The position numbers and the translations under genes were made by a program. Shown here in pieces: positions 11,661 through 37,771 of a stretch of 64,000 nt of DNA. Positions within the stretch are counted from its first letter, which is position 1. Every line of letters starts with the position of its first letter. The notes under the pieces are model-generated. The model worked only from the letters and a program-made list of their open reading frames with translations, did no database searches and was not told where the DNA came from. Location of the stretch: contig JBLKOK010000002.1 in assembly GCA_047602735.1 (NCBI GenBank), forward strand, positions 20,280 through 84,279. The letters run 5' to 3'. This DNA comes from Candidatus Woesearchaeota archaeon (GTDB lineage: Archaea > Nanobdellota > Nanobdellia > Woesearchaeales > 21-14-0-10-32-9).

Positions 11661-11663
11661 TGT

Positions 11664-13260: not shown

Positions 13261-13265
13261 CTATA

Positions 13266-17159: not shown

Positions 17160-17161
17160 TT

Positions 17162-18931: not shown

Positions 18932-18969
18932 GACAATTTATTTGTCGTCATAAAGATATATAAATATTA

Positions 18970-20587: not shown

Positions 20588-20631
20588 TTTAATTTAAGTA
20601 ATTAAATTTTGAATAGTATTTAAAATTTGTG

Positions 20632-20646
20632 AAAAAAAAAAAAAAA
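20632..20646 (-). terminator. oligo-T tract (T15 on the minus strand) immediately after the stop of 20647..21291
   Basis: A run of 15 A on the plus strand abuts the minus-strand stop codon. This is typical of archaeal intrinsic terminators and is also a slippage-prone homopolymer. Confidence 0.4.
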
Positions 20647-21291: not shown

Positions 21292-21324
21292 TTTTTTGTT
21301 TTACCTCCTAAAAAAAGTTTTTTT

Positions 21325-21552
21325 TTATCTTATTATAGTTATTGCCATAGTTCCTGAACTATCCGCAACTAACGGAACTCTAGCGTTAGATCCCACTCTT
21401 AGTTGTACTGTACCTGTTGCTTTTGCTTCCTCAACCAAGTTTGTTTCTGCTTTACTAACTTCAGTATATACAGTAAATGTTCCAAGTAGTGAAACTACAA
21501 CTGTTAATACAACTAAAGTCATAATTGTTTGTCTTGATATATCTTTTGCCAT
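21325..21552 (-). CDS. small TasA/camelysin-like pilin-like protein (75 aa)
   Basis: MAKDISRQTIMTLVVLTVVVSLLGTFTVYTEVSKAETNLVEEAKATGTVQLRV matches the SipW-cognate signal region and the first strand of TasA-like proteins (GTFAFFSDKEVS...AGTLDLTL). Confidence 0.4.
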   Translation of the reverse strand: MAKDISRQTIMTLVVLTVVVSLLGTFTVYTEVSKAETNLVEEAKATGTVQLRVGSNARVPLVADSSGTMAITIIR

Positions 21553-21622
21553 TTTTTATGTTCAGTTCGAATTTTTAATCCTAATATAGCTATTTAAAGT
21601 TTTCTATTAATTAGTAGTGTTT

Positions 21623-23122
21623 TTAATTTGTTATTATGCCCTCAAAGTTATTAATATGAACAAGACCGTATCTTGCACTTCCAGTATCTCTGTTTGGAAG
21701 GTTTCCTAATATCAAGTACGCATTTTCAGGTATTTCTCTGTTGTAATCCCGTTCATATAGTCTTAGTAATGTTTGTGCCCTACTACTAATTACGTATTCT
21801 TGACCTTGATTATTTAGTAGTACTTGATTATTTATGTATATCCTATTGTTTTCAACTCTAAATGAATCACCAGGTATTCCTTTTATTATTTTAAACACAG
21901 TTCCTTCTCTTATATGATTAAATGCTATAATATCATTTCTTTGAGGAACGTTTTGAGAATAGTAGTTTTCTACTATAGTAACTATTTGTGACTGAGATAA
22001 TACCCCTTCTAATTCATCATTTGGAATCATAGCTGTTCTTGTTGAAAATGAATCAGGATTTATTTGTTGAATTTGCATTTGTTGTACTGGCTCTTCAACG
22101 ATTTCTTCTTGATCTGGTTGAACTACTACTTGTTCTTCAACAATTTCTTCTTCAACTTCTTGATCTAAATCAAACACATCATCCACAACAACATCTTCAT
22201 CAACAGGCAAACCAACAACCTCTTCAACAATTTCTTCTTCAACTTCTTGATCTAAATCAAACACATCATCCACAACAACATCTTCATCAACAGGCAAACC
22301 AACAACCTCTTCAACAATTTCTTCTTCAACTTCTTGATCTAACTCAAACACATCATCCTCAACAGCATCTTCATCAACAGGCAAACCAACAACCTCTTCA
22401 GTAACATCTTCTTGAGTGGTTTGATTTATTAGGATTTCGATAAAAAAGTCTTCTGTTTCAAATACTACTTCATCAACTACTGCATAAATTTTACTTGACC
22501 AAACGCCTAATTTTAAAGGTGTTATTTCTAAAATGTTTTGAGTTATAGTATAACTATATCCTTGGCTTGACATAGCGTCATAAAATACTTCTTGTCCTTC
22601 AAAATAATTAGATAAATCAATCGTCAGTGTTTCATTAATAAGTAATGTAAAGTTTTGGATGTCTTTAATTTTTTCTTGTTGTTCTTGTATTATTTGATAA
22701 GTTGTTTTATATTTTATTTCTTCTAAATAAAAAATTATATCGTCGTCTATTTGAATCAGTAGCTCGGATGAATTAATACTTTCTAAATTACATGTTTGTA
22801 AACATTCTTCTGTTAAAGTTAACGATTCGTTATCTAAAACAGCACTATATATTTCTAAAACATCATTTTGAGTTTGTAAAAAAATAGCTATAGATCCATT
22901 ACCAGATATATTACCCGTTATTTTTAGTGAACTAAGATTTTCTCTTTGGAAAGAAATAGTTTCGTTTTGTTGATAAAATTCATTTACAGTTAATGTTTGT
23001 TGAGATTCATAGGTAGCAACAACTAGTCCAGTCATTGATGTGCCCACTAATGCTAAAAAATAAAGAGTCGAAACGACTCCCGCTATCAACAAAATTAACA
23101 CTAAAGAATTTTTTTCTTTCAT
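21623..23122 (-). CDS. membrane-anchored protein with three acidic 29-aa tandem repeats and a C-terminal type-I signal-peptidase (S26A)-like domain whose nucleophilic Ser is apparently replaced by Ala
   Basis: The C-terminal blocks RNDIIAF, KIIKGIPGDSF and IPENAYLILGNLPNRDTGSARYGLVHINNFEGII align with LepB RGDIVVF, KRAVGLPGDKV and [34 protein letters not shown]. The SGSMxPT box reads RTAMIPN. Confidence 0.5.
   Translation of the reverse strand: MKEKNSLVLILLIAGVVSTLYFLALVGTSMTGLVVATYESQQTLTVNEFYQQNETISFQRENLSSLKITGNISGNGSIAIFLQTQNDVLEIYSAVLDNESLTLTEECLQTCNLESINSSELLIQIDDDIIFYLEEIKYKTTYQIIQEQQEKIKDIQNFTLLINETLTIDLSNYFEGQEVFYDAMSSQGYSYTITQNILEITPLKLGVWSSKIYAVVDEVVFETEDFFIEILINQTTQEDVTEEVVGLPVDEDAVEDDVFELDQEVEEEIVEEVVGLPVDEDVVVDDVFDLDQEVEEEIVEEVVGLPVDEDVVVDDVFDLDQEVEEEIVEEQVVVQPDQEEIVEEPVQQMQIQQINPDSFSTRTAMIPNDELEGVLSQSQIVTIVENYYSQNVPQRNDIIAFNHIREGTVFKIIKGIPGDSFRVENNRIYINNQVLLNNQGQEYVISSRAQTLLRLYERDYNREIPENAYLILGNLPNRDTGSARYGLVHINNFEGIITN
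22138..22398. repeat. 3 x 87-bp near-perfect tandem repeat encoding the acidic unit EEVVGLPVDEDVVVDDVFDLDQEVEEEIV
   Basis: Direct repeats starting at about 22138, 22225 and 22312. The third copy carries a few substitutions. Confidence 0.85.
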
Positions 23123-23125
23123 AGT

Positions 23126-23386
23126 CTATTTTTTCTTTGTTGTCTTTTTCTTTGTTGTCTTTTTCTTTTTTACAGGTGCTTTTTTCTTAGAATTTTTAGT
23201 TTCTTGCTCTTCCATACCTTTTTTTACTTCTTCTGGTATGTTTTTTATTCCTTGTTTAAATTCACTTATACTTCTACCCGTATTTCTTGCAAGTCCAGGT
23301 GCTTTTTTACCTATGAAGTAAATTATTGCAACTATTAAAAGAATCCCTATTATTTCCCATAATCCTATCATGATTTTTTCCTCCAA
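23126..23386 (-). CDS. tatA: Sec-independent translocase subunit TatA/E with a Lys-rich C-terminal tail
   Basis: MIGLWEIIGILLIVAIIYFIGKKAPGLARNTGRSISEFKQG matches the TatA TM plus amphipathic-helix consensus (G..E..IIl.ivll.FG.kKLP.lar.lG....eFK). Confidence 0.8.
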   Translation of the reverse strand: MEEKIMIGLWEIIGILLIVAIIYFIGKKAPGLARNTGRSISEFKQGIKNIPEEVKKGMEEQETKNSKKKAPVKKKKTTKKKTTKKK

Positions 23387-23441: not shown

Positions 23442-23615
23442 CTATTCTTTTATTTTCTTTATTTCTTCTTTTACTTGCTTTGGAATTTCTTTAGCTTGTT
23501 TAAACGAATTTATTCCTTTGCCTGTTTGCCTTGCAAGTTTAGGCGCATCATTTCCAAGTAAATAAACTATTAATATTATTATTCCAAGACTTATTATTTC
23601 CCACGCTCCTATCAT
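23442..23615 (-). CDS. tatA: second TatA/E paralogue (57 aa; below the ORF-track length cut-off)
   Basis: Manual translation gives MIGAWEIISLGIIILIVYLLGNDAPKLARQTGKGINSFKQAKEIPKQVKEEIKKIKE. Its start overlaps the TatC stop by 4 nt. Confidence 0.7.
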   Translation of the reverse strand: MIGAWEIISLGIIILIVYLLGNDAPKLARQTGKGINSFKQAKEIPKQVKEEIKKIKE

Positions 23616-24319
23616 TTTATTAATTTTTTTTGTATTTTTGAAATTAAAATACCTATTTCAAAGCTACCGTGTATTGGTATTATCATTAAAAACATACTAA
23701 ATGGATCTGGAGGACTTATTAATGCAGATATTACTGCAACCAATATAAATATTATGCCTCTGTGATTTGTTAAATCTTCTATGTTTATTAATTCAGACTT
23801 TATAAGTATAGGTATTATTAAAACCAATTGTAAAATAAATGCCATAGTAAGCGCCATTATTATTATATATCTTACAACACTAGTTATACTCCACATAGGA
23901 TTTACTAAAATATAGTTTGTAGATAGCATAAATAACATGAATTTAGCAAATACAAGTATACCTATAATTACACCAATTATTCCAAGCATTATTGAAAAAG
24001 ATACAACCACAGTTAATTTCTTTCTGTTTTTTTGAGAAATTGCAGGTTTAACATAACCATATATTTTTGCAAAGATTATTGGCAAACCAAAAAATATTGT
24101 TAAAGAAAGTGCAATTGTTATTCTTGCAGAAAGATTTTCAAAAGGAGTTAATGCTACAACATTTGTAATATCAAGACCCATATAGTTTAATAGCCAAGGA
24201 ACAAAATATCCTGCAAGCCAAAAAAATAAAACAAATAAAATTAATAAAGGTACAAAAAGCATCAATAAAAGAAGTCTAAGCTGTGCTATATGCTCCCTTA
24301 TTGTTAGCTCTTCATCCAT
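23612..24319 (-). CDS. tatC: Sec-independent translocase subunit TatC
   Basis: 235 aa six-TM protein directly upstream of and overlapping tatA. The N-terminal cytoplasmic stretch MDEELTIREHIAQLRLLLL and the topology are consistent with TatC. Confidence 0.7.
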   Translation of the reverse strand: MDEELTIREHIAQLRLLLLMLFVPLLILFVLFFWLAGYFVPWLLNYMGLDITNVVALTPFENLSARITIALSLTIFFGLPIIFAKIYGYVKPAISQKNRKKLTVVVSFSIMLGIIGVIIGILVFAKFMLFMLSTNYILVNPMWSITSVVRYIIIMALTMAFILQLVLIIPILIKSELINIEDLTNHRGIIFILVAVISALISPPDPFSMFLMIIPIHGSFEIGILISKIQKKLIK

Positions 24320-24528
24320 TTAATAAAAGACAAAAAAAATTATTTTTTGCTTTGTGTTTCGTCTACCTTTTCTAATCTTTGTAATTCATTTATTAATTGA
24401 AATACATCACTATATGGTTGAGTTGCCAAATAGTTTAATAACGCTTGTAACAATTCTCTGCTTAGTTTATAATTCATATTTATCTACCCCCGTATGATTA
24501 AAAAAAATTAGAACTTATATATATTTTT

Positions 24529-25521
24529 TTATATAAGATCTCCTATGTATCCGATTATAGTTGCAGTTCCATTGTTTAATATACCGTAACTTTCGTTATG
24601 ACCTTGTAAAACATTAAAATTTGAAACATTCCTTTGATTTAAATCAAGATTTTGCGTAGCTCCCGTATAAGGAACATAATCATCATCCACATTTATAGTT
24701 ACAGTTCTTGAAGATTCAGAAGTAGTTATGCCTGTACCACCCTGTATTGTAAGAATTTGTCCATCTGAAACAACACTAGATCCAGTATCACCTGCTATTG
24801 TAAAAGAAGACATATCCCCGCCCCCTCCGACTAGTGAATCGACATATGCTTTTGTAGCTACATCAGAATCATCTACAGGATCAGATACATTAGATATTAT
24901 ATTATTACCCATGTTTAAAGCTCCAGACAAAACACCCCCGATAATTCTAAGGTATCTTGCATCACCCCACACCGTATCAAAACTAATCGTACCAGTATCA
25001 GTAATAGGACCACCAGTCAAACCATCACCAGTATTAATCTCCATAACAGAACCATTACTAAATGTATCTAATAATGTGTCTACGTAATCTTTTGTTGCAA
25101 CATCACTACCATCAATAGGTGTTGATACATTAGATATTATATTATTACCCATGTTTAAAGCTCCAGACAAAACACCCCCGATAATTCTAAGGTATCTTGC
25201 ATCACCCCACACCGTATCAAAACTAATCGTACCAGTATCAGTAATAGGACCACCAGTCAAACCATCACCAGTATTAATCTCCATAACAGAACCATTACCT
25301 GAACCTGCAACAGAAGAATCTACATAGTCTCTTGTTGCAGGAGAACTTCCATCTACAGGAGTTTGTACAATTACTGTACCCGTAAAATTAAAATCTCCAG
25401 AAATAGTATCCCCGTCTCTTATTATATATAGTGAATCGTGTCCAGGATCATTTTGAGCTATTGCTATTGGTAAATATAACAATACTGCCAATAAAATTAA
25501 GTGCTTATAATTTAGTTTCAT
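24529..25521 (-). CDS. secreted repeat protein with tail-fibre-like ATKxYVD repeats and an internal tandem duplication
   Basis: Sec signal MKLNYKHLILLAVLLYLPIAIA. The unit ATKDYVD...SNGSVMEINTGDGLTGGPITDTGTISFDTVWGDARYLRIIGGVLSGALNMGNNIISNVS occurs twice, and a third ATRDYVDS copy lies upstream. Confidence 0.5.
   Translation of the reverse strand: MKLNYKHLILLAVLLYLPIAIAQNDPGHDSLYIIRDGDTISGDFNFTGTVIVQTPVDGSSPATRDYVDSSVAGSGNGSVMEINTGDGLTGGPITDTGTISFDTVWGDARYLRIIGGVLSGALNMGNNIISNVSTPIDGSDVATKDYVDTLLDTFSNGSVMEINTGDGLTGGPITDTGTISFDTVWGDARYLRIIGGVLSGALNMGNNIISNVSDPVDDSDVATKAYVDSLVGGGGDMSSFTIAGDTGSSVVSDGQILTIQGGTGITTSESSRTVTINVDDDYVPYTGATQNLDLNQRNVSNFNVLQGHNESYGILNNGTATIIGYIGDLI
24887..25298. repeat. 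two 172-bp exactly identical copies (24887..25058 and 25127..25298) inside the CDS, period 240 bp
   Basis: Direct comparison of the sequence lines shows identical strings from acattagatattatattattacccatgtttaaag through ccataacagaaccattac. The flanking ~68 bp differ between copies. Confidence 0.9.
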
Positions 25522-25628
25522 TTCTTTTTACCTAATTTAAAACATACACCTAGTAATATTTAAATTTATCCGTTGGCTTTAAGAAAGATTTATATATAAC
25601 TTAAATTAGTTATAAAACATTTATTATA

Positions 25629-25686
25629 AATAAAAACAATAAAAACAATAAAAACAATAAAAACAATAAAAACAATAAAAACAATA
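25629..25686. repeat. about 6 copies of a 10-bp tandem repeat (AACAATAAAA) in the divergent intergenic region upstream of the Tfx-like gene
   Basis: The sequence reads ...taaaaacaataaaaacaataaaaacaataaaaacaataaaaacaataaaaacaatat... It lies 20-80 bp upstream of the ATG at 25708 and is a possible promoter or phase-variable element. Confidence 0.85.
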
Positions 25687-25707
25687 TAAGTTATTTAGGT
25701 TATAATT

Positions 25708-25905
25708 GTGTTAACGCGTAAAGAAATACAAGTTTTGGAATTTAGAAAAAAAAATATGACACAAGTAGAAATAGCTTCAAAACTAAATATTTCTCAAGCA
25801 GCAGTCTCAGGATTTGAGAGAAGCGCGTATAAAAAAATAAAGGATGCTCATAAAATAATAGAAGAGTCTGAAAGATTGGAGGTTGATATCCATGACAGAT
25901 ATTAA
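25708..25905 (+). CDS. small HTH DNA-binding protein, Tfx-like / sigma-70 region-4-like
   Basis: LTRKEIQVLEFRKKNMTQVEIASKLNISQAAVSGFERSAYKKIKDA matches the sigma70_r4/Tfx helix-turn-helix pattern. Its 3' end overlaps the next gene by 23 nt. Confidence 0.55.
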   Translation: MLTRKEIQVLEFRKKNMTQVEIASKLNISQAAVSGFERSAYKKIKDAHKIIEESERLEVDIHDRY

Positions 25906-27466
25906 ATCCAAACTAAACCAAATTCTCGATAAGAAGGTTAATCGTAAGAAATTCTTACAAATACTAGGACTTAGTGCAGCAGCAATACCATTGCTAAGTC
26001 CAAGCGTAGCAGCTAAATTCTTCCTACGACAAAGCAACGGCAACCTAATAGACATAGACGACTTAGATCCTAACGCATCAGCGCCAGCCGGTAGTGAAGG
26101 AGAAATACAATTCAAACAAGGAACAACGCTCGGTGCGAGTAATAATTTGTATTGGAATAATACTCAAAATAGATTGGGTGTTGGCACTAATAGTCCAGAT
26201 GAAACTTTGCACGTTGTTGGAAACACCGAGGTTGATGGTGATTTCGGAGTGACTGGAGATGCAGGCGTTATTGGTTTTGTTAGAGCAGACGATGGATTCC
26301 AAGTAGACGGAACCACAGTTATAGACAGCTCAAGAAACATAGTAAACGCAGGAACAGGAACGTTCTCAGGAACAGTAACAGCAGCAACACCAAGTTCCAC
26401 AAATCATCTGACCACAAAACAATACGTAGATGACGCAATAGTAAGTGCCGGAGGAGAAGCAGTCTGGGGAGGAATAACAGGAACACTTAGCAATCAAACA
26501 GACCTTCAAAACGCACTAAATTCCAAATTGAATTTGAGTGGCGGAACAATGACTGGAACCTTAATTACTCCTGCAAGTACCACTAGTGCTTCTTCAATTA
26601 GAATACCTCACGGCTCTGCTCCAAGCAGTCCTGTTAACGGAGATTTATGGACTACTACTAGTGCGCCGTTAATAAGATTAAACGGAACTACAAGAACAAT
26701 ATATCACACAGGTAACTTAGCAACAGTAGGTCAAGCAGAAGCAGAAGCAGGAACAGCAACAACAACAAGAGCTTGGACTGCTCAAAGAGTTAGACAAGCT
26801 ATTGAGGCCATTGTTCCAGATGTTACTGACGGTACTGATTTGAGTCTTGGAGTTAGTAGCGGAAGCGAGGTTAGAATAGATAGTAGCACAGGAACTAACG
26901 TTACCTTGCCTAATGCGTCAACAAGTAATGCTGGTTTAATAACAACAGAAGCACAAACCATAGCAGGAGTAAAAACATTCAGCTCAACAATAACAGGAAG
27001 TATATCTGGAAACGCAGGCACTGCCACCAACGCCAACCGACTGGTGGTACCTGATACCAGAGGCGCCAACGACCAGCCACAGGCCAAAGCAGGCAAAAGA
27101 ATAACTGCTGACTTCAAGTTCAACACTGCAGTAGGAAGCCCTCCTGTGACTGCCAGCGGAACATACTCGCATATCATCACTGTTGCTGGGTGGAACACAA
27201 ATGAAGCCAGTGGAGGCTGGCCTACACAGCTGTCAATTGGCGCAGCAGGAATAGCATATCGTCAGGCAACATCTGCAACTGCCTGGGGCGGGTGGAATGC
27301 CACAGTGAACACTGCTGGTAACCAGACCATTGGTGGCATCAAAACTTTTAGTAACGATTTGAATGTTAATGGTAAAACTACAAGCAATAATGGTTTTGAA
27401 ACAGGAGATTTTGAAATTGTTTATAATGAAGACACCGAAAGCTTAGATTTCAACTTTATAGGATAA
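25883..27466 (+). CDS. fibre-like secreted protein with a Tat-type (R-K variant) signal peptide and tail-fibre-like Gly/Thr-rich beta repeats
   Basis: N-region KVNRKKFLQILGLSAAAIPLLSPSVAAKF fits S/T-R-R-x-F-L-K with the second R replaced by K, then an h-region and an AxA site. It contains [11 protein letters not shown] and other tail-fibre-like motifs. Its stop is 2 nt from the next start. Confidence 0.5.
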   Translation: MISMTDIKSKLNQILDKKVNRKKFLQILGLSAAAIPLLSPSVAAKFFLRQSNGNLIDIDDLDPNASAPAGSEGEIQFKQGTTLGASNNLYWNNTQNRLGVGTNSPDETLHVVGNTEVDGDFGVTGDAGVIGFVRADDGFQVDGTTVIDSSRNIVNAGTGTFSGTVTAATPSSTNHLTTKQYVDDAIVSAGGEAVWGGITGTLSNQTDLQNALNSKLNLSGGTMTGTLITPASTTSASSIRIPHGSAPSSPVNGDLWTTTSAPLIRLNGTTRTIYHTGNLATVGQAEAEAGTATTTRAWTAQRVRQAIEAIVPDVTDGTDLSLGVSSGSEVRIDSSTGTNVTLPNASTSNAGLITTEAQTIAGVKTFSSTITGSISGNAGTATNANRLVVPDTRGANDQPQAKAGKRITADFKFNTAVGSPPVTASGTYSHIITVAGWNTNEASGGWPTQLSIGAAGIAYRQATSATAWGGWNATVNTAGNQTIGGIKTFSNDLNVNGKTTSNNGFETGDFEIVYNEDTESLDFNFIG

Positions 27467-27468
27467 AA

Positions 27469-30234
27469 ATGGCATTAATTGCATGGTGGAAACTTGATGG
27501 AAACGCAGAAGATATTATCGGAGGTAATGACGGTAATGCTGTAGGTACTACTGATTGGATTAATGGAAAGATAGGAGGTGCTGCGGAGTTTGGTCAGACA
27601 GGTTACATAGAGATTGGTAATTTGTCAAATTTAAATTTTCAGCCTGTAAATTCTTTTAGTATTGGTGGTTGGGTAAAAGTTACTGAGACGTTTCCAACTT
27701 GGCATAGTTCTCTTGGAAGGTGGTTGAATACGGTAACTACTTTTTTTGGTAGAGGTTCTACAGGGAGTTCTTTTGGTATTGGTATTTCTACTACTTGGAA
27801 CGATACTGGAGATCCTGAAATAGAACCAGAACCTACTAATTATCGTTTTTTATTTGGCTCTAGAGGAGTTAGTCAAATTTATATTACAGATAGTTATGAT
27901 TTTGAGTTGAATAAATGGTATCATTTATTTTTTGTTTATACTCCTGGAGTCCAATATGGTTATGTGAATGGTGAGCGAGTTATTACAAGAAATAATTCGG
28001 CAGGTATCGGAGGTACTTTTTCTGGAAGTTGGGGCGTTTTTGCTCCTAGAGCTGTTCCTGGAGGTAATGGACGTCATTCTGCAGGTGTTGCTGATGATTT
28101 AAGAATTTATAATCGTGCTTTGTCTATAAAAGAGATTAAAGAACTTTCAAGAGCTAAGGTTTTTCATACAAAACTTAATAATCCTAATTCAATAGATGAT
28201 GATAGTGGTAATGATGGCGAAATAACTAATAATGGAGCTGTTTTTTCTAGTGAATCTAAAATAGGTAGTGGTTCTTATGAGTTTGATAATAATAATATTC
28301 AAACAGATTGGGGTGAGAATTATACTGTTGATAATAATTTAACTCTTTCTTTGTGGGTTAAACCTTCAACGACATCAGGAAGTCAAATTTTTGCTTCTTT
28401 TGGAACAAATACAGACAATAGAAGAGCATATTTTTCAGTATATGGTGGAAATTGGGATATGGGCATTCAAGGAACTGCGTGGGGAGGAGGCAGTCAAGTT
28501 GCTAATACTGATTGGACTCATATAGCCATTGTATTTGGCGAAACATCAGTTAATATGTATACTAATACTATTCTGACTAGATCTATTTCGTATACTTCGT
28601 ATGATCTTTTAGCAAATCTTAGATTAGGTCAATATGGCAATGGTAGTTATCCTTTTTATGGAAATATACAAGATGTTAAAGTTTTTACACAAAGTTTGTC
28701 TTTAGCTGAAATAAATGAAATTTATTCTCAACGTGGCAGTATTGATAATAAAGGAAATTTATTTGCACAAGAACTTGCAGAGACTAGTCATAAACCTTTG
28801 ATTATGGATTATACTATTTGGCAAGACGGACAAACAGGTGCTCAAGGACCTTTTGGACAATATAGTTCTAGAAATTGGAGAACGATAGGAACTGATCCTT
28901 GGGGTAAAGAGACCGTTGTTTGGGAAGGAGAAAGCTTGGATGGTTCAACTGCAGGTACAGGTATTTATTTTTCGACTAGTAATCCTATTGATAATACTAA
29001 AATGTATAGATTAACATTTTGGGAGAGAAGAGTGACAAACTCTGATGCTACTTATGCCCGGTATTATTTTGGTCTTAATGGTTATGGCTCTACTAACGGA
29101 GTTTATAATAGAAGCACAGGTGCTTTAAGTACTAATCCTTATTTTTATAATACCTCTAACTTACCTACAAGTGCTCAACTTCCTGAAGGAGAATGGGTTT
29201 TATTTGTTGGTCATATTTGGCCTGCCGGAAGCGGTACTGGTTCTACTCATCCCGATAGTGGAAGATATACTTTGAATGGAAGACTAGGAAATATTTCAAG
29301 AGACTGGGTCTGGCACGAAACTAGTGATAGAGGAAGAGGTAGAACGCTAGCAATTTATCAGCCAAATTCAGGAGGTGTTATTCATCACAGCGTTTATCCT
29401 AGGATGGATGTTGTTGATGGTACCGAACCTAGTATCGCAGAATTACTTGCTGGTTTTGATTCAAACCACATAGATTATATTAGAGCTAAAGGAGGTACTA
29501 AATATATATCATTTGATATTAATTCTAAGCTAACTTATACAGGAGATATATCCGAAGTTGGTCCAACTCAAGGCCTCATTGGTTGGTGGCCTCTTAATGG
29601 AGATACCAATGATATGAGTGGAGAAGAAAATCATGGTATTAATAATAACGGAGTTGTTGTCCCTGGACTTAAACAACTAGCTTATGAATTTGATGGTGAT
29701 GGATGGATAGACTTAGGAGATAGTTTATATCTTCCTGATAATCACCCGTTTACCTTATCAGGATGGGTTAATTATAATAGTTTTTCAAATAGAGATATGA
29801 TGCTTAGTAGAAATGATGCTGTTAAAAGTGGTAGTCCTTATACTTGGCTGCTTGGTACAAGAGATGGGGATAGAATGTATGCTTATGATGGTAGTTCTTG
29901 GAGTCAAAGAATGTATTCTTTTAGTACAGGAACATGGTATCATTTAACTTTTAGATTTGATGGAACAACTATGCACTATTATGTTAACGGAGAAAGTATA
30001 GGAACAACTTCTTGGAGTTTTTCAGACAGCACCACTGGAAGAAACACCCAAATAGGAGGATATAGTGGAACTACAGGAGATATAGATGGTAAAACTTTTG
30101 ATATCAGATTTTATGATCGTGCTCTCTCACCTGAAGAAATCAAGATTCTTTATGATATTACAAAACCAGGCGGACCTCGTGTAAAAAAAACTAAGACTGG
30201 TGTTTATATTAAAGGAGAGTTTGTGGAAGATTAA
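27469..30234 (+). CDS. 921 aa protein with three LamG/concanavalin-A-like lectin domains and no signal peptide
   Basis: Three copies of the LamG signature: WKLDGNAEDIIGGNDGNAVGTTDWINGKIGGAAEFG...FSIGGWVKV, DSGNDGEITNNGAVFS...LTLSLWVKPS, and SGEENHGINNNGVVVPGLKQLAYEFDGDGWIDLG...FTLSGWVNY ... DIRFYDRALSPEEIKILY. Confidence 0.7.
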   Translation: MALIAWWKLDGNAEDIIGGNDGNAVGTTDWINGKIGGAAEFGQTGYIEIGNLSNLNFQPVNSFSIGGWVKVTETFPTWHSSLGRWLNTVTTFFGRGSTGSSFGIGISTTWNDTGDPEIEPEPTNYRFLFGSRGVSQIYITDSYDFELNKWYHLFFVYTPGVQYGYVNGERVITRNNSAGIGGTFSGSWGVFAPRAVPGGNGRHSAGVADDLRIYNRALSIKEIKELSRAKVFHTKLNNPNSIDDDSGNDGEITNNGAVFSSESKIGSGSYEFDNNNIQTDWGENYTVDNNLTLSLWVKPSTTSGSQIFASFGTNTDNRRAYFSVYGGNWDMGIQGTAWGGGSQVANTDWTHIAIVFGETSVNMYTNTILTRSISYTSYDLLANLRLGQYGNGSYPFYGNIQDVKVFTQSLSLAEINEIYSQRGSIDNKGNLFAQELAETSHKPLIMDYTIWQDGQTGAQGPFGQYSSRNWRTIGTDPWGKETVVWEGESLDGSTAGTGIYFSTSNPIDNTKMYRLTFWERRVTNSDATYARYYFGLNGYGSTNGVYNRSTGALSTNPYFYNTSNLPTSAQLPEGEWVLFVGHIWPAGSGTGSTHPDSGRYTLNGRLGNISRDWVWHETSDRGRGRTLAIYQPNSGGVIHHSVYPRMDVVDGTEPSIAELLAGFDSNHIDYIRAKGGTKYISFDINSKLTYTGDISEVGPTQGLIGWWPLNGDTNDMSGEENHGINNNGVVVPGLKQLAYEFDGDGWIDLGDSLYLPDNHPFTLSGWVNYNSFSNRDMMLSRNDAVKSGSPYTWLLGTRDGDRMYAYDGSSWSQRMYSFSTGTWYHLTFRFDGTTMHYYVNGESIGTTSWSFSDSTTGRNTQIGGYSGTTGDIDGKTFDIRFYDRALSPEEIKILYDITKPGGPRVKKTKTGVYIKGEFVED

Positions 30235-30264
30235 ATTTATTAAGTTTTGTTAATTCTTTTTTTT

Positions 30265-31344
30265 ATGAAGGTTTGTTTGGTTAGTATTGTTAAGGATGAG
30301 TCTCATGTTATTTTGAGGATGCTTGAAAGTGTTAGAAAGTATGTTGATGAGTATGTTATTGTTGATACTGGTTCTAGTGATGATACTATTAGTATTTGTG
30401 AGAATTATTTTAAGGAAGAAAAAGTTAAAGGCAAGGTTTTTAGTAGGCCTTGGAAGAATTTTGGTCATAATAAGGGGGAGGCTTTGGCTATTGCAAGAAA
30501 GCATAGTTCTTGTGATTATTTGATGATGATTGATGCAGATAATTTTATTGAGGGTTCTTTTAAGATACCTGATAGTATTGATAAGGATGGTTATTATGTT
30601 AAGCATAAGTATGGTGATGGAACTAATTTTTTTTGGAGGAAGCAGTTGTTTAAAAGAGTTAAGCCTTGGACTTATAAAGGTGTTTTGCATGAGTATCCTT
30701 TTCTTGAGGGTGATAACGATATAGGTTTTATTTACGGCGAATATTTTTTTACTGAGACTCATGAGGGTGCTAGGAATAAGGATCTTGTTAAGAAGTATGA
30801 GAGTGATATTAATGTTTTACTTGATGGTTTGAAAGATGAGCCTGATAATGCTAGGTATATGTTTTATTTAGGTCAAAGTTATATTTGTCTTGATAATTTT
30901 AAGGAAGGTGCTAAGTGGTATTTGAAGGCTGCTAAGAGTAGCTCTTGGGATGAGGAGGTTTGTGTTAGTTATTATAGGTGTGGTTTGGCTTATATGGAGC
31001 TTCGTGAGTTTAGTAAGGCTAAGAAGTGTTTGTATGAGGCATTTAAGGTTAGACCTTCTAGGCTTGAGTCTATGTATATTTTAATTAAGTATTATTATGA
31101 AAAGGGAGAGTTTGAGGAAGGTTATCAGGCAGGTCAGTTGATTAAGAGTTTTGAGGTTTCTGATGATACTTTGTTTGTTGAACAAGATGTTTATGAGTGG
31201 AAGATTTTTGATTTGCTTAGTCTTTGTAGTTATTATTCCGAGAGGTTTGATGAAGCTAGGAATTATTATGAGTTAATGATTAATATTCCAAGAGAAGAAA
31301 TGGATCGTTATAATAATAATAAACAGTTTTTTTATCAGAAATGA
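30265..31344 (+). CDS. family-2 glycosyltransferase with C-terminal TPR-like repeats
   Basis: N-terminal GT-A block VSIVKDESHVILRMLESV...YVIVDTGSSDDT...MIDADN (DxD motif), then a helical repeat region (YMFYLGQSYICLDNFKEGAKWYLKA...). The start was chosen at MKVCLVS (30265). Confidence 0.65.
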   Translation: MKVCLVSIVKDESHVILRMLESVRKYVDEYVIVDTGSSDDTISICENYFKEEKVKGKVFSRPWKNFGHNKGEALAIARKHSSCDYLMMIDADNFIEGSFKIPDSIDKDGYYVKHKYGDGTNFFWRKQLFKRVKPWTYKGVLHEYPFLEGDNDIGFIYGEYFFTETHEGARNKDLVKKYESDINVLLDGLKDEPDNARYMFYLGQSYICLDNFKEGAKWYLKAAKSSSWDEEVCVSYYRCGLAYMELREFSKAKKCLYEAFKVRPSRLESMYILIKYYYEKGEFEEGYQAGQLIKSFEVSDDTLFVEQDVYEWKIFDLLSLCSYYSERFDEARNYYELMINIPREEMDRYNNNKQFFYQK

Positions 31345-31946
31345 ATTCCTAATACTTCTGGGACTTCTATGTAGTCATATTTTTTTGCTAGTTCTTCGTA
31401 GGTATATCCGTCTGCTAGGTATCCTTGGTCTTGGTTCCATCCTCCTATTTCTTTTAAGTGTTTTTTTTTTATCATAAGTTGTAGTGTGTCTACGTTTTGA
31501 ACTTTTACAGGTATACCCTTTATTATCTGAGGCGGCAGTCCTAGGTGTTCTGGTAGGGGTCCTAGGTGTATTATTTTGCATATTGAAAACGCCGTTTTTT
31601 CATCTGTATTTTTTAGTGCGTTTAGCATTTTTTCTAGGTAGTGTGGGAATATTAAGTTGTCATCATCTAGAAATATTATGTAGTCTGCTTTTGCTTTTGT
31701 GAATGCGTGTTGTCTTGCTTTGTTTGCATAGTCTTGATAGTGTTTTTTTAAGTGTAAATATTTTATTTTTGGGTCTTTTTTTGATTTTACGTATTTTTTT
31801 ACGTTTTCTTCAAATCCGTCACTGCAAATTAGGTGTTCGTATTCTTGTATTGTTTGTGATTTTACGCTTCTTATACATCTCTCTATTATTTCTAAGGGTC
31901 TGTTCCATGTAGGTGTGATTATTGTTATTTTTGGTTTTATTGCCAT
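31335..31946 (-). CDS. family-2 glycosyltransferase
   Basis: ITIITPTWNRPLEIIERCIRSVKSQT...YIIFLDDDN (GT-A fold, DxD). The start was chosen at MAIKPK and overlaps the upstream GT stop by 10 nt. Confidence 0.65.
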   Translation of the reverse strand: MAIKPKITIITPTWNRPLEIIERCIRSVKSQTIQEYEHLICSDGFEENVKKYVKSKKDPKIKYLHLKKHYQDYANKARQHAFTKAKADYIIFLDDDNLIFPHYLEKMLNALKNTDEKTAFSICKIIHLGPLPEHLGLPPQIIKGIPVKVQNVDTLQLMIKKKHLKEIGGWNQDQGYLADGYTYEELAKKYDYIEVPEVLGIHF

Positions 31947-33172
31947 TGTGGTCCTGGAAGTATAGGTGTTTGTTTTTTTATTGCACAAAGGTCTACTTGT
32001 GTTATTAAGTAATCGTTTTCTTTATGCCAGTCTGTTGGATAAAATGTTTCGTTTCTCCATGATTGGAATTTTCCTTTAAATCCTATTTTTTCTGCAAAGA
32101 ATTTTTGGGTGTAGAATTTTGTGCTTTCTTCGTTCCAAAAGCTTTTGTTTAATGGGTTTGCAAATGCGTGTTTGCAGTCTGAGCTTACTACTTCTAAGAA
32201 TAGTAGTCCTCCGTGGTCTAGTATTCTCCATAGTTCTTGCATTGTTTTTATTGGGTCAGTGCATTTTTCTAGTATGTTATGTGCTTTTATTACCCCTACT
32301 GAGTTTGTTTTTATTTTTTTTAAGTCATTAATATTTATTTTTTCAAAGTCCATCCAGTCTTCTGAATCAACACTCATATCTATCAGTCTTAATTTTTTGT
32401 CTTGTGCCCATTTTACTGCTATTTTTCTGCTATAGTTAAAGTAGTTTGTTTGTACTATGTCTTGTACTTCATCATTATTTACTATGCTATGATTGTTATC
32501 GTGTACTCTGTATAAGTATAGTGGTTTTTTTATCCATTTAAATCCTTGTTCGCCGAATTCTAAGAAGAATTTGCACATTAATTCATGGTCGTCTCCGCTT
32601 GGAAGTTCTTCGTTGTGACCTCTTATTTGTTGGTATGATTTTTTTCTCCATGCTCTTACATGGTTTGGTGCCCACTCTATTCTCATGATAGTTGTTGCAT
32701 ATATTGGGAAGGCTATTGTTTCTAGTAATTCTTTATCTTGGTATTTGAATGGTTTTGTTTTCCATCCCCAGTATGAATCGTATGTTCTTGGTTTCCATGT
32801 ATCGTTAAAAAATTCTACTGTGTTGGAGTATGCGAAGTGGGTTTTTTTATCTTTGAATGCTTGAATTATTTCTTGTAGTGCGTTTGGTGTTAGCATGTCA
32901 TCTGCGTCTAATTCTACTATTATTTCTGATGTTGCTTTTAGGCTTAATTTTTTTTTAAGTCTCCCTATATTGTTGTCTTTTCCTATTTCAGTTAATATTT
33001 TTACTCGTTTATCTTTTGCTATTTCGTCAGATATTTTTCCGCCATTATTTAGAAGTATTAGCCATTCCCATTCTTGTATTGTTTGGTTTTTTAAAGAATC
33101 GTATGTTTGTTGAATATAAGGATTTGATTTGTAGTACACAGGACTTATTATAGATATTTTAGGTTTAATCAT
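31937..33172 (-). CDS. two-domain protein: N-terminal family-2 glycosyltransferase plus C-terminal SAM-methyltransferase-like domain
   Basis: ISIISPVYYKSNPYIQQTYDSLKNQT...VELDADDML (GT-A, DxD), followed by ...LDHGGLLFLEVVSSD..., which resembles a class-I methyltransferase core (weak). Confidence 0.55.
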   Translation of the reverse strand: MIKPKISIISPVYYKSNPYIQQTYDSLKNQTIQEWEWLILLNNGGKISDEIAKDKRVKILTEIGKDNNIGRLKKKLSLKATSEIIVELDADDMLTPNALQEIIQAFKDKKTHFAYSNTVEFFNDTWKPRTYDSYWGWKTKPFKYQDKELLETIAFPIYATTIMRIEWAPNHVRAWRKKSYQQIRGHNEELPSGDDHELMCKFFLEFGEQGFKWIKKPLYLYRVHDNNHSIVNNDEVQDIVQTNYFNYSRKIAVKWAQDKKLRLIDMSVDSEDWMDFEKININDLKKIKTNSVGVIKAHNILEKCTDPIKTMQELWRILDHGGLLFLEVVSSDCKHAFANPLNKSFWNEESTKFYTQKFFAEKIGFKGKFQSWRNETFYPTDWHKENDYLITQVDLCAIKKQTPILPGPQWQ

Positions 33173-33306
33173 TTATTTATTAAAAAAAAGATTATTATTT
33201 ATAGCTTTTGATTTGTGTAAAAAGCTATGTTTAAGCGTTGTTATTGTGAGAAAATTTATAAAAAAAACATTACTTAGGTTTAAAGTAATACTATTTAGTT
33301 TATAAA

Positions 33307-34788
33307 ATGGCGAAATTTAAAAGTAGTAAAGTTAAAGGAAGATTAGATGTTGAAGGTTCTGCTGAGTTTAAAAAATCTTTAAGTATAAAGGATGCTGAAG
33401 ATAGTGATGAAGCTACTACTAAAAAGTATGTTGATGATGAAATTTCTAATGTTAGTTCTACTGTAGGCCCTCAAGGACCTCAAGGACCAACTGGTTATAA
33501 AGGTAATCAAGGAAGCCAAGGAGCAGTAGGGCACCGAGGAAATCAAGGACCTGTTGGATATAAAGGTAATCAAGGGTCTAGTGGAGGTTCTGGTTCTCAA
33601 GGAAGCCAGGGACCTACAGGTAGTAGAGGTAGCCAAGGCGCTGCAAGTACCACCGCAGGACCTAGAGGACCACAAGGAGGTGGAGGACCGACAGGTTATG
33701 TTGGCGCTACAGGACCTGCAGGTTATGTTGGTAATGTTGGTCCAACTGGACCTGGAGGACCAAGAGGACCGCAAGGAAGCCAAGGCGCTGCAAGCACCAC
33801 CGCAGGACCAAGAGGACATACCGGTACAACTGGACCTGGGGGTCGTCAAGGAGCTGTTGGTCCTGGAGGTTATTCAGGAGCAGTTGGTCCTACTGGTAGT
33901 GGAGGACCAAGAGGACCACAAGGAGGACAAGGAGCAACCGGACACACAGGAAACAGAGGACCTGGAGGACCAGGAGGACCAAGAGGACCACAAGGAGGAC
34001 AAGGAGCAACCGGACACAGAGGACACACAGGAGGTGGAGGACCAGGAGGACCAAGAGGACCACAAGGAAGCCAAGGAGCAACAGGGTATGTAGGACCAGG
34101 AGGACCAGGCGGATACGCAGGACCAGGAGGACCAGGCGGATACGTAGGACCAGGAGGACCAGGCGGATACGTAGGACCAGGAGGACCAGGCGGATACGCA
34201 GGACCAGGAGGACCAGGCGGATACGCAGGACCACAAGGACCTCAAGGATATAGAGGAGCTCAAAGAAGAGGACCACAAGGATTTAGAGGACCTACAGGAC
34301 CTTTTTTATCTTCTAGGACTTTAAAGAAAAATATTAAGACTTTAGATGATCAGACAAAAAATCTTGAAAGAATTCAGCCAGTTAGGTTTAAGTGGAAAAA
34401 AGATAAAAAAGAGGATATTGGTCTTATTGCTGAAGAATTGAAAAAAGTTTATCCTGAGTTTGTTTATCATAATTTAAAAGGAGAAGTTGAAGGCATTCAT
34501 TATGGTAAGTTAAATTCTGTATTGATTAATATTTCTCAAAAGCAGCAAGAAAAAGTTAAAAAGATTTTAGATGATTTTTATTTAGCTATTTTTGATAGTG
34601 ACTTAGATAAAGGAAGAAATTTATTAGACTTATCCACTTATTGGAAAAGAAAAGATGTGCCTGAGGTTATTATTACGAGTGATAAGGGTTATTCTTGTAT
34701 TGGGTATATAAGTGAAGATGAAAAGAACATAATTATAGATGTAGAACATAATGGGAAGTATAAAGTTACTTTGATTAAAACGGCGTGA
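33307..34788 (+). CDS. collagen-like triple-helix repeat protein with C-terminal intramolecular-chaperone auto-processing (peptidase S74 / tail-fibre-type) domain
   Basis: About 270 aa of uninterrupted Gly-X-Y ([16 protein letters not shown]...[16 protein letters not shown]). Then [53 protein letters not shown] matches the endosialidase/tail-fibre chaperone consensus (SxRxLKxNI...L.PV.Y.yk......iGfIAqEv..v.Pe.V). There is no signal peptide. The N-terminus carries ATTKKYVDD. Confidence 0.75.
34093..34227. repeat. 5 x 27-bp tandem repeat (GGACCAGGAGGACCAGGCGGATACGYA) encoding GPGGPGGY[A/V]
   Basis: Five exact or near-exact units read directly from the sequence within the collagen gene. Confidence 0.85.
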
Positions 34789-34793
34789 ATAAG

Positions 34794-36260
34794 ATGGCAA
34801 AGCTTACTAATACAAAAATATTTGGAGACTTAACCGTAGTTGGAAAAGGAAAATTCAACAACACCATAAAAATAGGACCTCCAACACAAGACGACCATGC
34901 CACAACCAAACAATACGTAGATAATCAAATAAGCAACATAACATTAACACCCGGTCCTCAAGGACCTAGAGGACCACAAGGAAGTGTAGGTTCTGGGGGA
35001 CCTAGAGGACCACAAGGTATAACTGGGCCTAGAGGACCACAAGGAAGCCAAGGTAGTAGTGGAGTTGGAGGGAGTCAGGGTAGTACTGGCCCTACAGGTC
35101 CAACCGGAGTTGTTGGGCCTGGAGGTTATACTGGACGCACAGGTCCAACTGGACCTGGCGGTTATAGGGGAAACCAAGGACCAGGCGGATACAGAGGAAA
35201 CCAAGGACCACAAGGAGCAACCGGACACAGAGGACACACAGGAAGCGGAGGACCAGGCGGACCTGCGGGATATGTTGGTCCACAGGGTAGTCAAGGGCCT
35301 ACTGGTTATAGGGGAAACCAAGGACCAGGCGGATACAGAGGAGTACAAGGACCACAAGGAGCAACCGGACACAGAGGACACACAGGAAGCGGAGGACCAG
35401 GAGGACCAAGAGGACCACAAGGAGGACAAGGAGCAACCGGACACACAGGAAACAGAGGACCAGGAGGACCAGGAGGACCAAGAGGACCACAAGGAGGACA
35501 AGGACCTGTAGGATACACAGGAAACAGAGGACCAGGAGGACCAGGAGGACCAAGAGGACCACAAGGCGCAACCGGACGCAGAGGAAACCAAGGACCAGGC
35601 GGATACAGAGGAAACCAAGGACCAACCGGACGCAGAGGAAACCAAGGACCAACCGGACACAGAGGAAACCAAGGACCAACCGGACACAGAGGAAACCAAG
35701 GAGGCGGAGGACCAAGAGGACCACAAGGTCCTACTGGACCTGCAGGCGTTCGAGGCCACCAAGGTCATACAGGTCCTGCAAGGTCTTCATCTATTAGATA
35801 TAAAGAAAAATTAAGAGTGCTTGAAGATCAAACCAATAATTTAGATTTAATTAAACCTAGAAGTTTTAAATGGAAAGATAGTGATAAAAAAGATATTGGT
35901 CTTATTGCTGAAGAAATAGATAAATTATATCCTGAAGTAATTGTATATAATGAAAAAAATGAACCTGAGCGTATTTTTTATGAAAAATTAACTACTGTAT
36001 TATTAGATATTGCTAAAAGGCAAGAAAAATCTATTTTAGGTTTAGAAAATAAAACAAAAGTTAGTAGTTTTAGTTTAGATTTAGATGAAGGTTTAAATGT
36101 TTTTGAGCTGGATAACTATTGGGATTATGATACAGCTAATTTAAAGTTGTTTATTGAATCTAAAAATAGTGCATATGGAACGATTAATTCAAATAATACT
36201 TTTAGTATTATTGCTTCAAAGAAAGGAAAACACACTGTTGTTTTGATTAAAAATAGTTAG
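34794..36260 (+). CDS. collagen-like triple-helix repeat protein with C-terminal S74-type intramolecular-chaperone domain (paralogue 2)
   Basis: N-terminus [46 protein letters not shown], then ~280 aa of Gly-X-Y, then [51 protein letters not shown]. The start was chosen at MAKL (the track ORF begins 9 nt earlier at a GTG). Confidence 0.75.
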
Positions 36261-36268
36261 AATATAAA

Positions 36269-37771
36269 ATGGCGAAACTTACTAATACAAAAATATTTGG
36301 AGACTTAACCGTAGTTGGAAAAGGAAAATTCAACAACACCATAAAAATAGGACCTCCAACACAAGACGACCATGCCACAACCAAACAATACGTAGATGAT
36401 CAAATAAACAACATAACCTTAACACCCGGTCCTCAAGGTCATACTGGGCCTACTGGGCCAGTTGGAGATATAGGAAATACAGGAAGTACAGGCGCTGTAG
36501 GTTATACAGGTGTAACAGGACCTGTGGGAGATACGGGTAGTTCTGGTGGTGTTGGGAGTCAAGGACCTGCAGGAGCTACAGGACCTGCAGGACACAGAGG
36601 AGTACAAGGACCTCAAGGACCTGGAGGATATAGAGGAGTACAAGGCGGAGCTGGACCAAGAGGACCACAAGGAAGTCATAGTACTACTGCAGGGCCAAGG
36701 GGACCACAAGGAAGCCAAGGAGCAACCGGGTATACAGGTAATAGAGGAGTACAAGGACCAGCAGGACCAGCAGGGCCAAGAGGACCGCAGGGTTCTGCAA
36801 GTAGTGTGAGAGGACCACAAGGAGCAGCCAATACAACTACAGGACCAAGAGGACCACAAGGAGGACAAGGAGCAACCGGACGCAGAGGACACACAGGAGG
36901 CGGAGGACCAGGAGGACCAAGAGGACCACAAGGAAGCCAAGGAGCAACCGGACACACAGGAAACAGAGGACCAGGAGGACCAGGAGGACCAAGAGGACCA
37001 CAAGGAGGACAAGGAGCAACCGGACGCAGAGGACACACAGGAGGCGGAGGACCAAGAGGACCACAAGGAGGCGGAGGACCAAGAGGACCACAAGGAGGCG
37101 GAGGACCAAGAGGACCACAAGGAGGCGGAGGATCGAGAGGACCACAAGGAGGCGGAGGACCAAGAGGACCACAAGGACCAGGCGGACCTACTGGTTGGTC
37201 TGGTAATACTGGACCTGCAGGTCCTCTTGGAATTAGGGGTCATCAAGGACCTCAAGGATATGCGGATACAGGTTCTTTCTCTACTAAGAAATTAAAGTAT
37301 GATATTAAGGATTTAGAAGATCAAACCAGAAAAGTTAATAAATTAAGGCCTGTTAGTTATAGGTGGAAGAAAGATAATGTAAAAGATATTGGTCTTATTT
37401 CTCAAGAGCTTCATGAAATTTATCCGGAGTTTACAGGATTAGATGAGAATGGAGAAGCGGTTAATATTGATTATAGTAAGTTAGTTACTGTTTTATTTGA
37501 TGTTGCTAAGCGTCAACAAAAAAAGATTGATGATTTGGTTAATAAATTTGAGTTTAAATTTTTAAGAGTTGTTGCTTCCAAGGATAAGTGTGATTTAGTT
37601 GTTAGTCTTCCAGATTATTTTAAGTATTTAAATAAAAATAATAGTGTGTTGGTTCAGCCTATTAACATGTTTAGTTCTGGTTATGGAGTAATTAAAAGTA
37701 ATAGTTTAGAGTTGTATTTGGATAAGAAAGGAGAATATGATGTTTTAATTATGAGTGTTAGGACTGATTAA
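36269..37771 (+). CDS. collagen-like triple-helix repeat protein with C-terminal S74-type intramolecular-chaperone domain (paralogue 3)
   Basis: Same N-terminal 55 aa as paralogue 2, ~285 aa of Gly-X-Y including 5 x GGGPRGPQG, then [54 protein letters not shown]. Confidence 0.75.
37041..37175. repeat. 5 x 27-bp tandem repeat (GAGGCGGAGGACCAAGAGGACCACAAG) encoding GGGPRGPQG
   Basis: Read directly. The fourth copy has the GGATCGAGAGGA variant. Confidence 0.85.

Follow-up and report, generated by a model that had tools for sequence, protein, structure and literature searches.

It is well known that homologues of phage fibres equip cellular particles, tailocins and contractile injection systems among them. 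The long tail fibre of phage T4, for its part, is composed of gp34, the hinge protein gp35, gp36, and gp37, with gp38 and gp57A as separate chaperones. On the archaeal side, tafi, a surface filament of Haloarcula hispanica, is made of subunits that follow the twin-arginine translocation (Tat) pathway and carries the LamG protein TafC at its tip (PMC11821415); in addition, LamG/concanavalin proteins and glycosyltransferases (GTs) have been cited as generic surface-modification and adhesion genes of DPANN archaea and their viruses (PMC11310336). We report here on a locus in which fibre genes, a multi-LamG gene, and GT genes stand side by side, a type of locus of which we found no description in the literature on DPANN tail fibres, collagen, and LamG. 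It lies at positions 24529-37771 of a 64-kb stretch of archaeal chromosome of about 30% G+C (hereafter, the window), located on a 189,226-bp contig of a Candidatus Woesearchaeota metagenome-assembled genome (MAG).

We consider it likely that this cassette is a chromosomally fixed and lineage-conserved locus of Woesearchaeota, in which a long-tail-fibre module of large phages has been exapted as an exported, probably glycosylated, jointed surface fibre. Its role is probably the attachment of an ultra-small, probably episymbiotic cell to a partner cell or to a surface glycan. An initial annotation of this DNA had left three alternatives, namely a provirus, a tailocin-like particle, and a domesticated surface fibre, and the last of them fits best. 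Its gene list was accurate: every gene it had named in the cassette was found in place, and the TatA-TatA-TatC group that it had noticed immediately upstream is confirmed by Pfam matches to tatC and to two tatA genes. The features, with their positions in the window, are as follows:

23442-23615 and 23126-23386, minus strand: two copies of tatA (Pfam TatA_B_E, 1e-7 and 5e-4)
23612-24319, minus strand: tatC (Pfam TatC, E 9e-30)
24340-24477, minus strand: open reading frame (ORF) of 45 amino acids (aa) between tatC and fibre protein 1, no family match
24529-25521, minus strand: fibre protein 1, 330 aa, with a Sec-type signal and three [AT]T[KR]xYVD repeats
25708-25905, plus strand: 65-aa regulator with a helix-turn-helix (HTH) of the Tfx-N/GerE type (NCBIfam tfx, 38 bits)
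25892-27466, plus strand: main (proximal) fibre, 524 aa, with a Tat-like signal, mosaic homologues, and a BppL_N motif (Pfam)
27469-30234, plus strand: multi-LamG protein, 921 aa, without signal, Laminin_G_3 three times (Pfam, E 3e-52)
30247-31344, plus strand: GT2-TPR glycosyltransferase (Pfam Glycos_transf_2, TPR repeats)
31335-31988, minus strand: GT2 glycosyltransferase (Pfam Glycos_transf_2)
31937-33172, minus strand: GT2-methyltransferase (Pfam Glycos_transf_2, methyltransferase domain)
33307-34788, 34785-36260, and 36269-37771, plus strand: three tandem paralogues of collagen/Peptidase_S74 fibres (Pfam Collagen and Peptidase_S74)

The whole locus was found again, in identical order, on L021, a 130-kb contig of the Joint Genome Institute (JGI) that was located via P0122, a full-length homologue of the LamG protein: tatC is followed there by a 48-aa ORF, a 330-aa protein with a Sec signal, a 65-aa HTH gene, a fibre of 2725 aa, the LamG gene, GT genes, and collagen genes. 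Between the two contigs, identity amounts to 56% for TatC, 56% for the 330-aa protein, 65% for the HTH protein, 39% for the LamG protein, and 90% for the small ORF, which is the most conserved gene of the locus, far above TatC or the fibre genes. As TatC is just 56% identical, the arrangement has survived considerable divergence. The 2725-aa fibre agrees with the main fibre of the window in its N-terminal signal and in its last 24 residues, with the LamG gene again 2 nt behind it; the position of the GT2 set is occupied by a different GT/methyltransferase set, and the collagen genes start with MAKLTNTTVYGKL..., the same N-terminus as in the window, at which point the contig ends. A third occurrence, at 9817-20681 of the 320-kb contig L185, consists of the HTH gene, a signal-bearing fibre of 2825 aa, and an S74 part, placed between rpL34e and the SecY/ribosomal-protein operon; since the 235-nt gap before the S74 part reads as coding, the fibre may extend into it as one product of about 3500 aa that a frameshift or an error in the sequence has broken up. 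An overlap of 14 nt between the 65-aa HTH gene and the fibre gene is common to all three loci. A profile search of genome contigs with the alignment of P0001 and P0002 was driven by signal-peptide patterns, and no relative was confirmed. The G+C content at third codon positions (GC3) is host-like in the collagen, LamG, and protein 1 genes, which points to long residence.

The origin of the module was sought in metagenome and viral contigs, where the gene just upstream of LamG ends with the tail motif ..F/M-x-Y-N-x3-6-L/I-x-F-x-F followed by the stop codon, and where the gene just downstream often starts with MAxLxxTxIYGxLxV and encodes collagen and/or S74. We thus defined a triad as an upstream fibre with this C-terminal tail motif, a LamG gene at most 80 nt downstream, and a nearby fibre with the MAxLxxTxIYGxLxV start. 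Of the 83 sources scanned, 23 showed a LamG start of this kind, 16 a tail/LamG pair, and 18 an MAxL fibre, and all three parts were present together in the window, in L021, and in several viral-type contigs (including L022, L024, L026, L032, L037, L067, and L080), while neither the tail/LamG pair nor the MAxL fibre was found in any of 80 cellular LamG loci. Holin and endolysin genes are carried by L022, and L027 has an ORF whose N-terminus looks, by eye, like a tail sheath. On L026, a contig of 312 kb with a G+C of 0.30 like that of the archaeon, the region 10001-18865 has a LamG gene with an S74 fibre directly behind it, then a 160-aa ORF and two glycosyltransferases, of the PF11397 and GT25 types; in gene content, L026 is the closest viral parallel to the combination of LamG, S74, and GT genes seen in the window. 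Relatives of the LamG protein were also found at 76 IMG/VR loci, many of them on contigs of 100-550 kb. The suspicion that these are virus-derived fibre modules is supported by the PHROG tail-fibre matches, the S74 matches, the IMG/VR loci, and the conserved order, and comparison of the sequences establishes the archaeal gene triad as homologous to that of the viral contigs.

What sets the archaeal version apart is the beginning of its main fibre. This protein opens with a signal (NRKKFLQILG...VAA↓KFFLRQ), continues with a shaft of mosaic make-up and a knob-like segment at aa 361-480, and closes with a C-terminal tail that is conserved (GFETGDFEIVYNEDTESLDFNFIG). Compared with the Sec signals of the window, its n-region is long (23 aa vs 3-11 aa) and its h-region is weakly hydrophobic (Kyte-Doolittle 2.2-2.3 vs 2.7-3.8), with VAA↓K as cleavage site; a long charged n-region, a weakly hydrophobic h-region, and an AxA-type cleavage site are all traits of Tat substrates. 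The S/T-R-R-x-F-L-K Tat motif itself was not found in the family, which reads N/S/T-R-K-K-F-L-Q, the second arginine being a lysine in nearly all members. The product had first been called a Tat-signal protein; its sequence reads NRKKFLQ, with R-K instead of the twin arginine. The maximal N-terminal Kyte-Doolittle value is 2.2-2.3 in two archaeal fibres vs at most 1.5 in 13 upstream fibres from viral-type contigs; judged on such profiles, the signal-less N-terminus of the proximal fibre is replaced by a conserved signal peptide, in archaeal loci only.

Behind the VAA↓K site, the archaeal cassette continues with a conserved KFFLRQxxGxLIDIDDL. An exhaustive search of 1.84 billion representative proteins with this N-terminal cassette returned 22 matches, most of which have it at their own N-terminus; the metagenomic family P0180-P0199 follows the pattern [ST]RKKF[LI]...AK[FT]FLR[QK]x[DN]GxL[LI]DIDD[LI]. 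As about 20 cluster representatives carry the cassette in front of passenger domains that have no relation to one another, it looks like a lineage-specific export and anchor module, whose signal may be recognised by Tat despite the RK pair. Since the main fibre has gained a secretion signal and adjoins the Tat export genes, a cell-surface fibre is most likely, rather than a hidden virus.

The remainder of the main fibre is mosaic. Compared with P0002 and with the fibre of L021, both termini are conserved and the middle is swapped. GC3 of the gene is 0.28 vs 0.15 expected (z = 8), and rises to 0.40-0.50 in 40-residue blocks over aa 361-500; the knob-like segment (26972-27331) is about 70% identical to parts of the unrelated fibre proteins P0003 and P0005 and is not present in the orthologue P0002. 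With this high GC3 and this identity to unrelated fibres, the segment resembles a piece acquired recently, by recombination, from a donor of higher G+C. When viral contigs were scanned with the main fibre as a single query, the matches were short and at motif level only, and a PDB sequence search gave nothing useful.

We then have to consider whether the locus could belong to a virus or to a virus-like particle. Nearly all ORFs of at least 100 aa of the 64 kb were scanned against Pfam, and most of those without a Pfam match against PHROG: no capsid, portal, terminase, sheath, tube, baseplate, or integrase gene was found in the window. The flanks of the cassette encode NMD3, a Hel308-type helicase, thymidine kinase, SMC, GAPDH, phosphoenolpyruvate synthase, a P-type ATPase, MoxR/DUF58/VWA proteins, ABC transporters, and three tRNAs. 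Other sequencing runs yielded contigs of this organism that extend the window in both directions, by about 6.6 kb upstream (glycogen-metabolism genes) and about 4.8 kb downstream (MscS, a lactate permease, and a dehydrogenase); according to precomputed Pfam gene calls, these contigs carry only cellular genes and no virion genes. No virion, packaging, or integration gene thus lies within about 31 kb on either side of the cassette, and the 3' end of tRNA-Ile occurs as a single copy in the window, with no duplicate resembling an attachment site (att). Neither in L021 nor in L185 did the precomputed Pfam gene calls reveal a sheath, tube, baseplate, or spike family over a distance of 10 kb. The initial annotation had made the search for virion genes in the flanking genome the test of its viral readings; window and both flanks proved cellular, and, given also the missing att duplicate and the synteny in L021, we do not retain a provirus or a tailocin.

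The three collagen proteins start with MAK(L/F)...ATTK(K/Q)YVD and have collagen spans of 266-279 residues, with 78-92 Gly-X-Y triplets in runs. Right behind the collagen region, each has a Peptidase_S74 domain scoring 52.1, 32.5, and 47.6 bits, respectively, vs a cut-off of 22; these domains match those found at the C-termini of phage fibres. Ser335 and Lys340, which we take from our knowledge of the S74 family to be the catalytic dyad, are invariant across the three paralogues. GC3 of the genes is 0.15-0.18 vs 0.15 expected from host usage, so that their raised G+C is due to amino-acid composition. Genes 2 and 3 share 94% identity along 187 nt at their 5' ends (34789-34975 and 36264-36450) and only 63-73% at their S74 ends; the near-identity of the 5' ends suggests a recent duplication or a gene conversion at the N-terminal end. 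Searched against phage genomes, the N-terminal 57 aa gave non-significant matches only (E 0.02-1). Two antisense ORFs run through collagen genes on the minus strand, at 34944-35768 (274 aa) and 36419-37255 (278 aa); their products would be rich in Ser, Trp, Cys, and Leu, and we rejected them as genes, as they are by-products of the GGN/CCN repeat.

The LamG gene has its ATG 2 nt behind the stop codon of the main fibre (junction TAA-AA-ATG); with the three Laminin_G_3 domains recognised by Pfam, the early description of a signal-less triple LamG protein with a 2-nt spacer was correct. A fourth domain, likewise a beta-sandwich, occupies the centre of the protein (residues about 430-660), and the structural model of the protein shows four beta-sandwiches, at a moderate predicted local distance difference test (pLDDT) score of 62.7, for which Foldseek returned lectin-like jelly rolls. 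Its full-length homologues are P0122-P0144, and Vibrio phages of about 250 kb have the central domain under the annotation "virion structural protein". A single-sequence scan of viral contigs with the LamG protein gave no matches. As a negative control, a profile search of cellular genome contigs with the LamG alignment retrieved generic LamG domains only, mostly from Bacteroidota. The start of the protein, MALIAWWKLDGN, had been considered as a special docking motif; this idea was dropped, as the cellular LamG control indicates that it is probably an ordinary first LamG strand.

All three glycosyltransferases that had been announced carry Glycos_transf_2 (Pfam). The GT2-TPR enzyme matches phrog_13126 over its full length (E 4e-33), with relatives in phages of 300-735 kb.

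Fibre protein 1 was also as first described, with 330 aa, a Sec-type signal, and three motif repeats; it matches PHROG tail-fibre families (E 2e-14) and contains an internal 240-nt tandem duplication at 24832-25298, 92% identical (repeat D7). The same short motif had been noticed in five proteins, and this proved exact: translated in six frames, the 64 kb contain [ASTV][TSN][KR]xY[VIL][DN] 7 times, always within the five fibre-like proteins (three copies in protein 1, one in protein 2, that is, the main fibre, and one in each collagen protein) and nowhere else. Its proposed function as a common N-terminal adaptor (ATTKxYVDD) is not supported in that form: it is N-terminal in the collagen proteins only, internal in protein 2, and triple in protein 1, thus internal in two of the five proteins, and it also occurs inside solved chains of a phage tailspike (depolymerase) and a hyaluronidase (PDB 9m4c and 6wv2). 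From this distribution, the YVD motif is a generic element of fibre shafts, and the N-terminal element that is truly common with viral fibres is the first 15 or so residues of the collagen proteins, with their MAxLxxTxIYGxLxV pattern.

The gene at the head of the operon, which had been called a Tfx-like regulator, does encode an HTH protein, but its match to TIGR00721 (tfx) stays below the cut-off of 60.25 bits and covers only positions 7-64 of the 137 of the model; it resembles the N-terminal HTH half of Tfx, and membership in the Tfx family is not reached. The overlap of this gene concerns the start of the main fibre gene, whose ATG is preceded by GGAGG.

These elements can be combined in a working model. 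The HTH protein would control the operon. The proximal fibre would trimerise in the cytoplasm, as phage fibres do, and then leave via Tat, tatC and tatA being the probable export route of this signal-bearing protein. The translationally coupled LamG protein would dock on the C-terminal tail of the fibre and is proposed as the connector/lectin between this fibre and the collagen-fibre N-termini, a place comparable to that of gp35 between gp34 and gp36/37 in T4. The S74 domain would trimerise the collagen fibres and then be shed by self-cleavage at the conserved Ser-x4-Lys; the remaining rod would measure roughly 80 nm, as estimated from about 280 collagen residues, and the three GT2 enzymes would decorate the fibres with sugars. 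The Sec-exported protein 1 could be a companion short fibre or an anchor. Specificity would evolve fast through module swapping in the fibre, divergence of LamG, and turnover of the GT set. Because phage fibres fold in the cytoplasm, the Tat export of a folded complex, with signal-less partners hitchhiking on it, is attractive; it fits the conserved tat adjacency, which is suggestive only, being seen in two divergent genomes, and we can only infer it. Tafi, as Tat-dependent archaeal fimbriae tipped by a LamG protein, set a precedent (PMC11821415).

One has to keep in mind several points that weigh against a surface fibre of this kind. The LamG, collagen/S74, and GT proteins have no signal peptide, so that a location outside the cell needs something like the predicted Tat hitchhiking, and a trimer of the 2725-aa orthologue would be, to our knowledge, far above the size of any known Tat cargo. 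With RK instead of RR in the Tat motif, TATFIND-type rules would reject the signal. No membrane anchor, PGF-CTERM, or S-layer-binding domain was recognised in the proteins of the locus. The foreign-looking GC3 of the fibre gene (z = 8) means that at least part of it is a recent import. Our inspection reached about 31 kb beyond each end of the cassette, on a contig that measures 189 kb and belongs to an incomplete MAG, and the archaeal assignment of L021 and L185 rests on gene content.

Could the cassette be instead what is left of a decaying provirus, the last tail-fibre/host-range module of an integrated head-tailed archaeal virus of which the rest has been deleted? All fibre components do have viral relatives, the GC3 of the fibre gene is atypical, and tRNA-Ile lies 2.8 kb downstream; yet there is no integrase, att duplicate, or other viral gene, the reading frames are intact, the paralogues and the Ser/Lys dyad are maintained, and the collagen genes use host-like codons. 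As, moreover, the locus and its tatC flank persist in a genome with so different a TatC, and as it has gained secretion signals that viral fibres lack, we hold such a remnant to be very unlikely. We give just as little credit to fibres arming a tailocin, an extracellular contractile injection system, a gene-transfer-agent-like particle, or a resident virus encoded elsewhere, a scenario that draws on the four fibre-locus proteins without signals, like virion proteins, on the MAxLxxT N-terminus, which also occurs in distal fibres of viruses whose docking partner is presumably a virion or another fibre, and on the fact that our view covers about one third of the 189-kb contig. Indeed, export signals on the main fibre and on protein 1 would make no sense for a particle assembled in the cytoplasm, the tat adjacency is conserved, the L185 unit sits beside a ribosomal-protein operon with no particle genes within 10 kb, and the 64 kb contain no sheath, tube, or baseplate family.

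A different role for an exported structure would be that of a coat or decoy, in which glycosylated collagen rods form a hair-like nap that protects the cell, or mimics or masks viral receptors, without binding any partner. Collagen together with glycosyltransferases recalls BclA, which forms such a nap on Bacillus spores, and the fibrils of Mimivirus, the collagen region matches the BclA chain 1wck, and no globular head would be left on the collagen proteins after S74 cleavage. This role is unlikely in our opinion, although it does not exclude that of an adhesin: binding is the typical task of modules such as the lectin-like multi-LamG protein and the knob-like domain, and the fast divergence of LamG (39% vs 56% for TatC) and the swapping of fibre modules resemble the evolution of specificity. 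Lastly, a phage fragment might have been wrongly joined to the archaeal contig during assembly or binning, the region being rich in repeats inside which short-read assemblies break. We regard this artefact as almost certainly absent, since independent Logan assemblies from other runs connect both edges of the cassette to its flanks (L017 joins tatC to protein 1; L019 and L020 lead from a 375-aa membrane protein into collagen gene 3 at its 3' end), the synteny is repeated in L021, and the codon use of most cassette genes equals that of the flanks.

An exapted, exported surface fibre, thus, is the reading we favour. A bolder version of it, which we find rather doubtful, is that a DPANN lineage has made a complete phage long tail fibre into a cellular organelle by means of the RK-type Tat signal/anchor cassette, the complex being glycosylated and pre-assembled in the cytoplasm, exported whole with its hitchhikers, and used to grapple the host; the cell would then carry the receptor-binding gear of a phage for holding its own host. 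Should the Tat export of a pre-folded fibre complex be confirmed, it would extend the cargo range of Tat and provide, after tafi, a second and independent case of a Tat-dependent archaeal filament. For the recognition of, and attachment to, partner cells by ultra-small DPANN archaea, the locus offers a concrete candidate apparatus with defined parts, whose evolutionary source, the fibre modules of large phages, is clear and whose conversion from virion to cell is recognisable as a signal cassette swapped onto the N-terminus. In the literature, we found no complete phage fibre triad fixed in an archaeal chromosome with a secretion cassette, its own regulator, and tat neighbours, nor the viral triad described as a defined module. 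Two handles for genome mining result: the viral three-gene fibre module and the protein family with the RK-type Tat-like N-terminal cassette.

Other surface genes lie on the far side of the tat genes. Directly downstream of tatA, a run of surface-protein genes (13266-23122, minus strand) starts with an S26 signal peptidase I that has an N-terminal extension of about 350 aa with three acidic tandem repeats (VGLPVDEDVVVDDVFDLDQEVEEEIVEE), followed by proteins of 214, 378, 162, 589, and 1297 aa, all with N-terminal signals and three with C-terminal membrane anchors. A complete MoxR-type cluster (MoxR AAA+ ATPase, DUF58, and BatA/VWA) is present at 9802-12734 on the minus strand, upstream of these surface-protein genes. 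The run may be a second surface-structure cluster using the same secretion genes; a family search found no match to Taf-like or TasA-like families in it.

A further likeness to tafi appears in this neighbourhood: a regulator and a type I signal peptidase of the S26 family belong to the tafi cluster (PMC11821415), and an S26 peptidase is found next to tatA in the window. In tafi filaments, small TafA subunits, which have canonical RR signals, polymerise by donor-strand exchange (PMC11821415); no TafA/TafE-like subunit was found in the window, no Taf model matched the neighbouring genes, and the TafC model gives 53.5 bits against the LamG protein, vs a cut-off of 410, over one LamG domain only.

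With BclA, streptococcal Scl, Lcl of Legionella, and the Mimivirus fibrils, the locus shares Gly-X-Y rods encoded beside glycosyltransferase genes. The Scl and Lcl models of NCBIfam match the collagen proteins partially, with 89-122 bits vs cut-offs of 325-500, and no LPXTG anchor, signal peptide, or C1q-like head of these adhesins was seen in the collagen proteins; trimerisation would come, unlike in that group, from a cleavable S74 domain. This domain recalls fibres of the endosialidase, T5 pb1, and GA-1 type, which share a C-terminal S74 above the cut-off with a serine and a lysine five residues later. The archaeal genes differ from those of these fibres in being cellular and in forming three tandem paralogues, and what remains of the protein after cleavage would be almost purely collagen, without a globular receptor-binding head.

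The architecture as a whole is reminiscent of T4, by analogy, in that the genes for a proximal fibre, a connector, and a distal fibre follow one another in a row and that conserved termini could dock on the connector. The 921-aa LamG connector has no demonstrated homology to gp35, however, the N-terminus of the collagen proteins gives weak and non-significant matches (E 0.1-1) to gp36-like "hinge connector" genes, and the archaeal distal fibre is a collagen triple helix with its S74 chaperone, whereas T4 relies on separate chaperones. The fibre, LamG, and fibre modules of large or jumbo phages come nearest, since they have the gene order, the fibre tail, the full-length LamG architecture, and the MAxL start of the archaeal locus, with glycosyltransferases nearby in L026. 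Their fibres lack a signal peptide and are encoded amid genes for the virion or for lysis; the archaeal locus, unlike them, combines a signal-bearing fibre with a dedicated HTH gene, tat neighbours, and cellular flanks.

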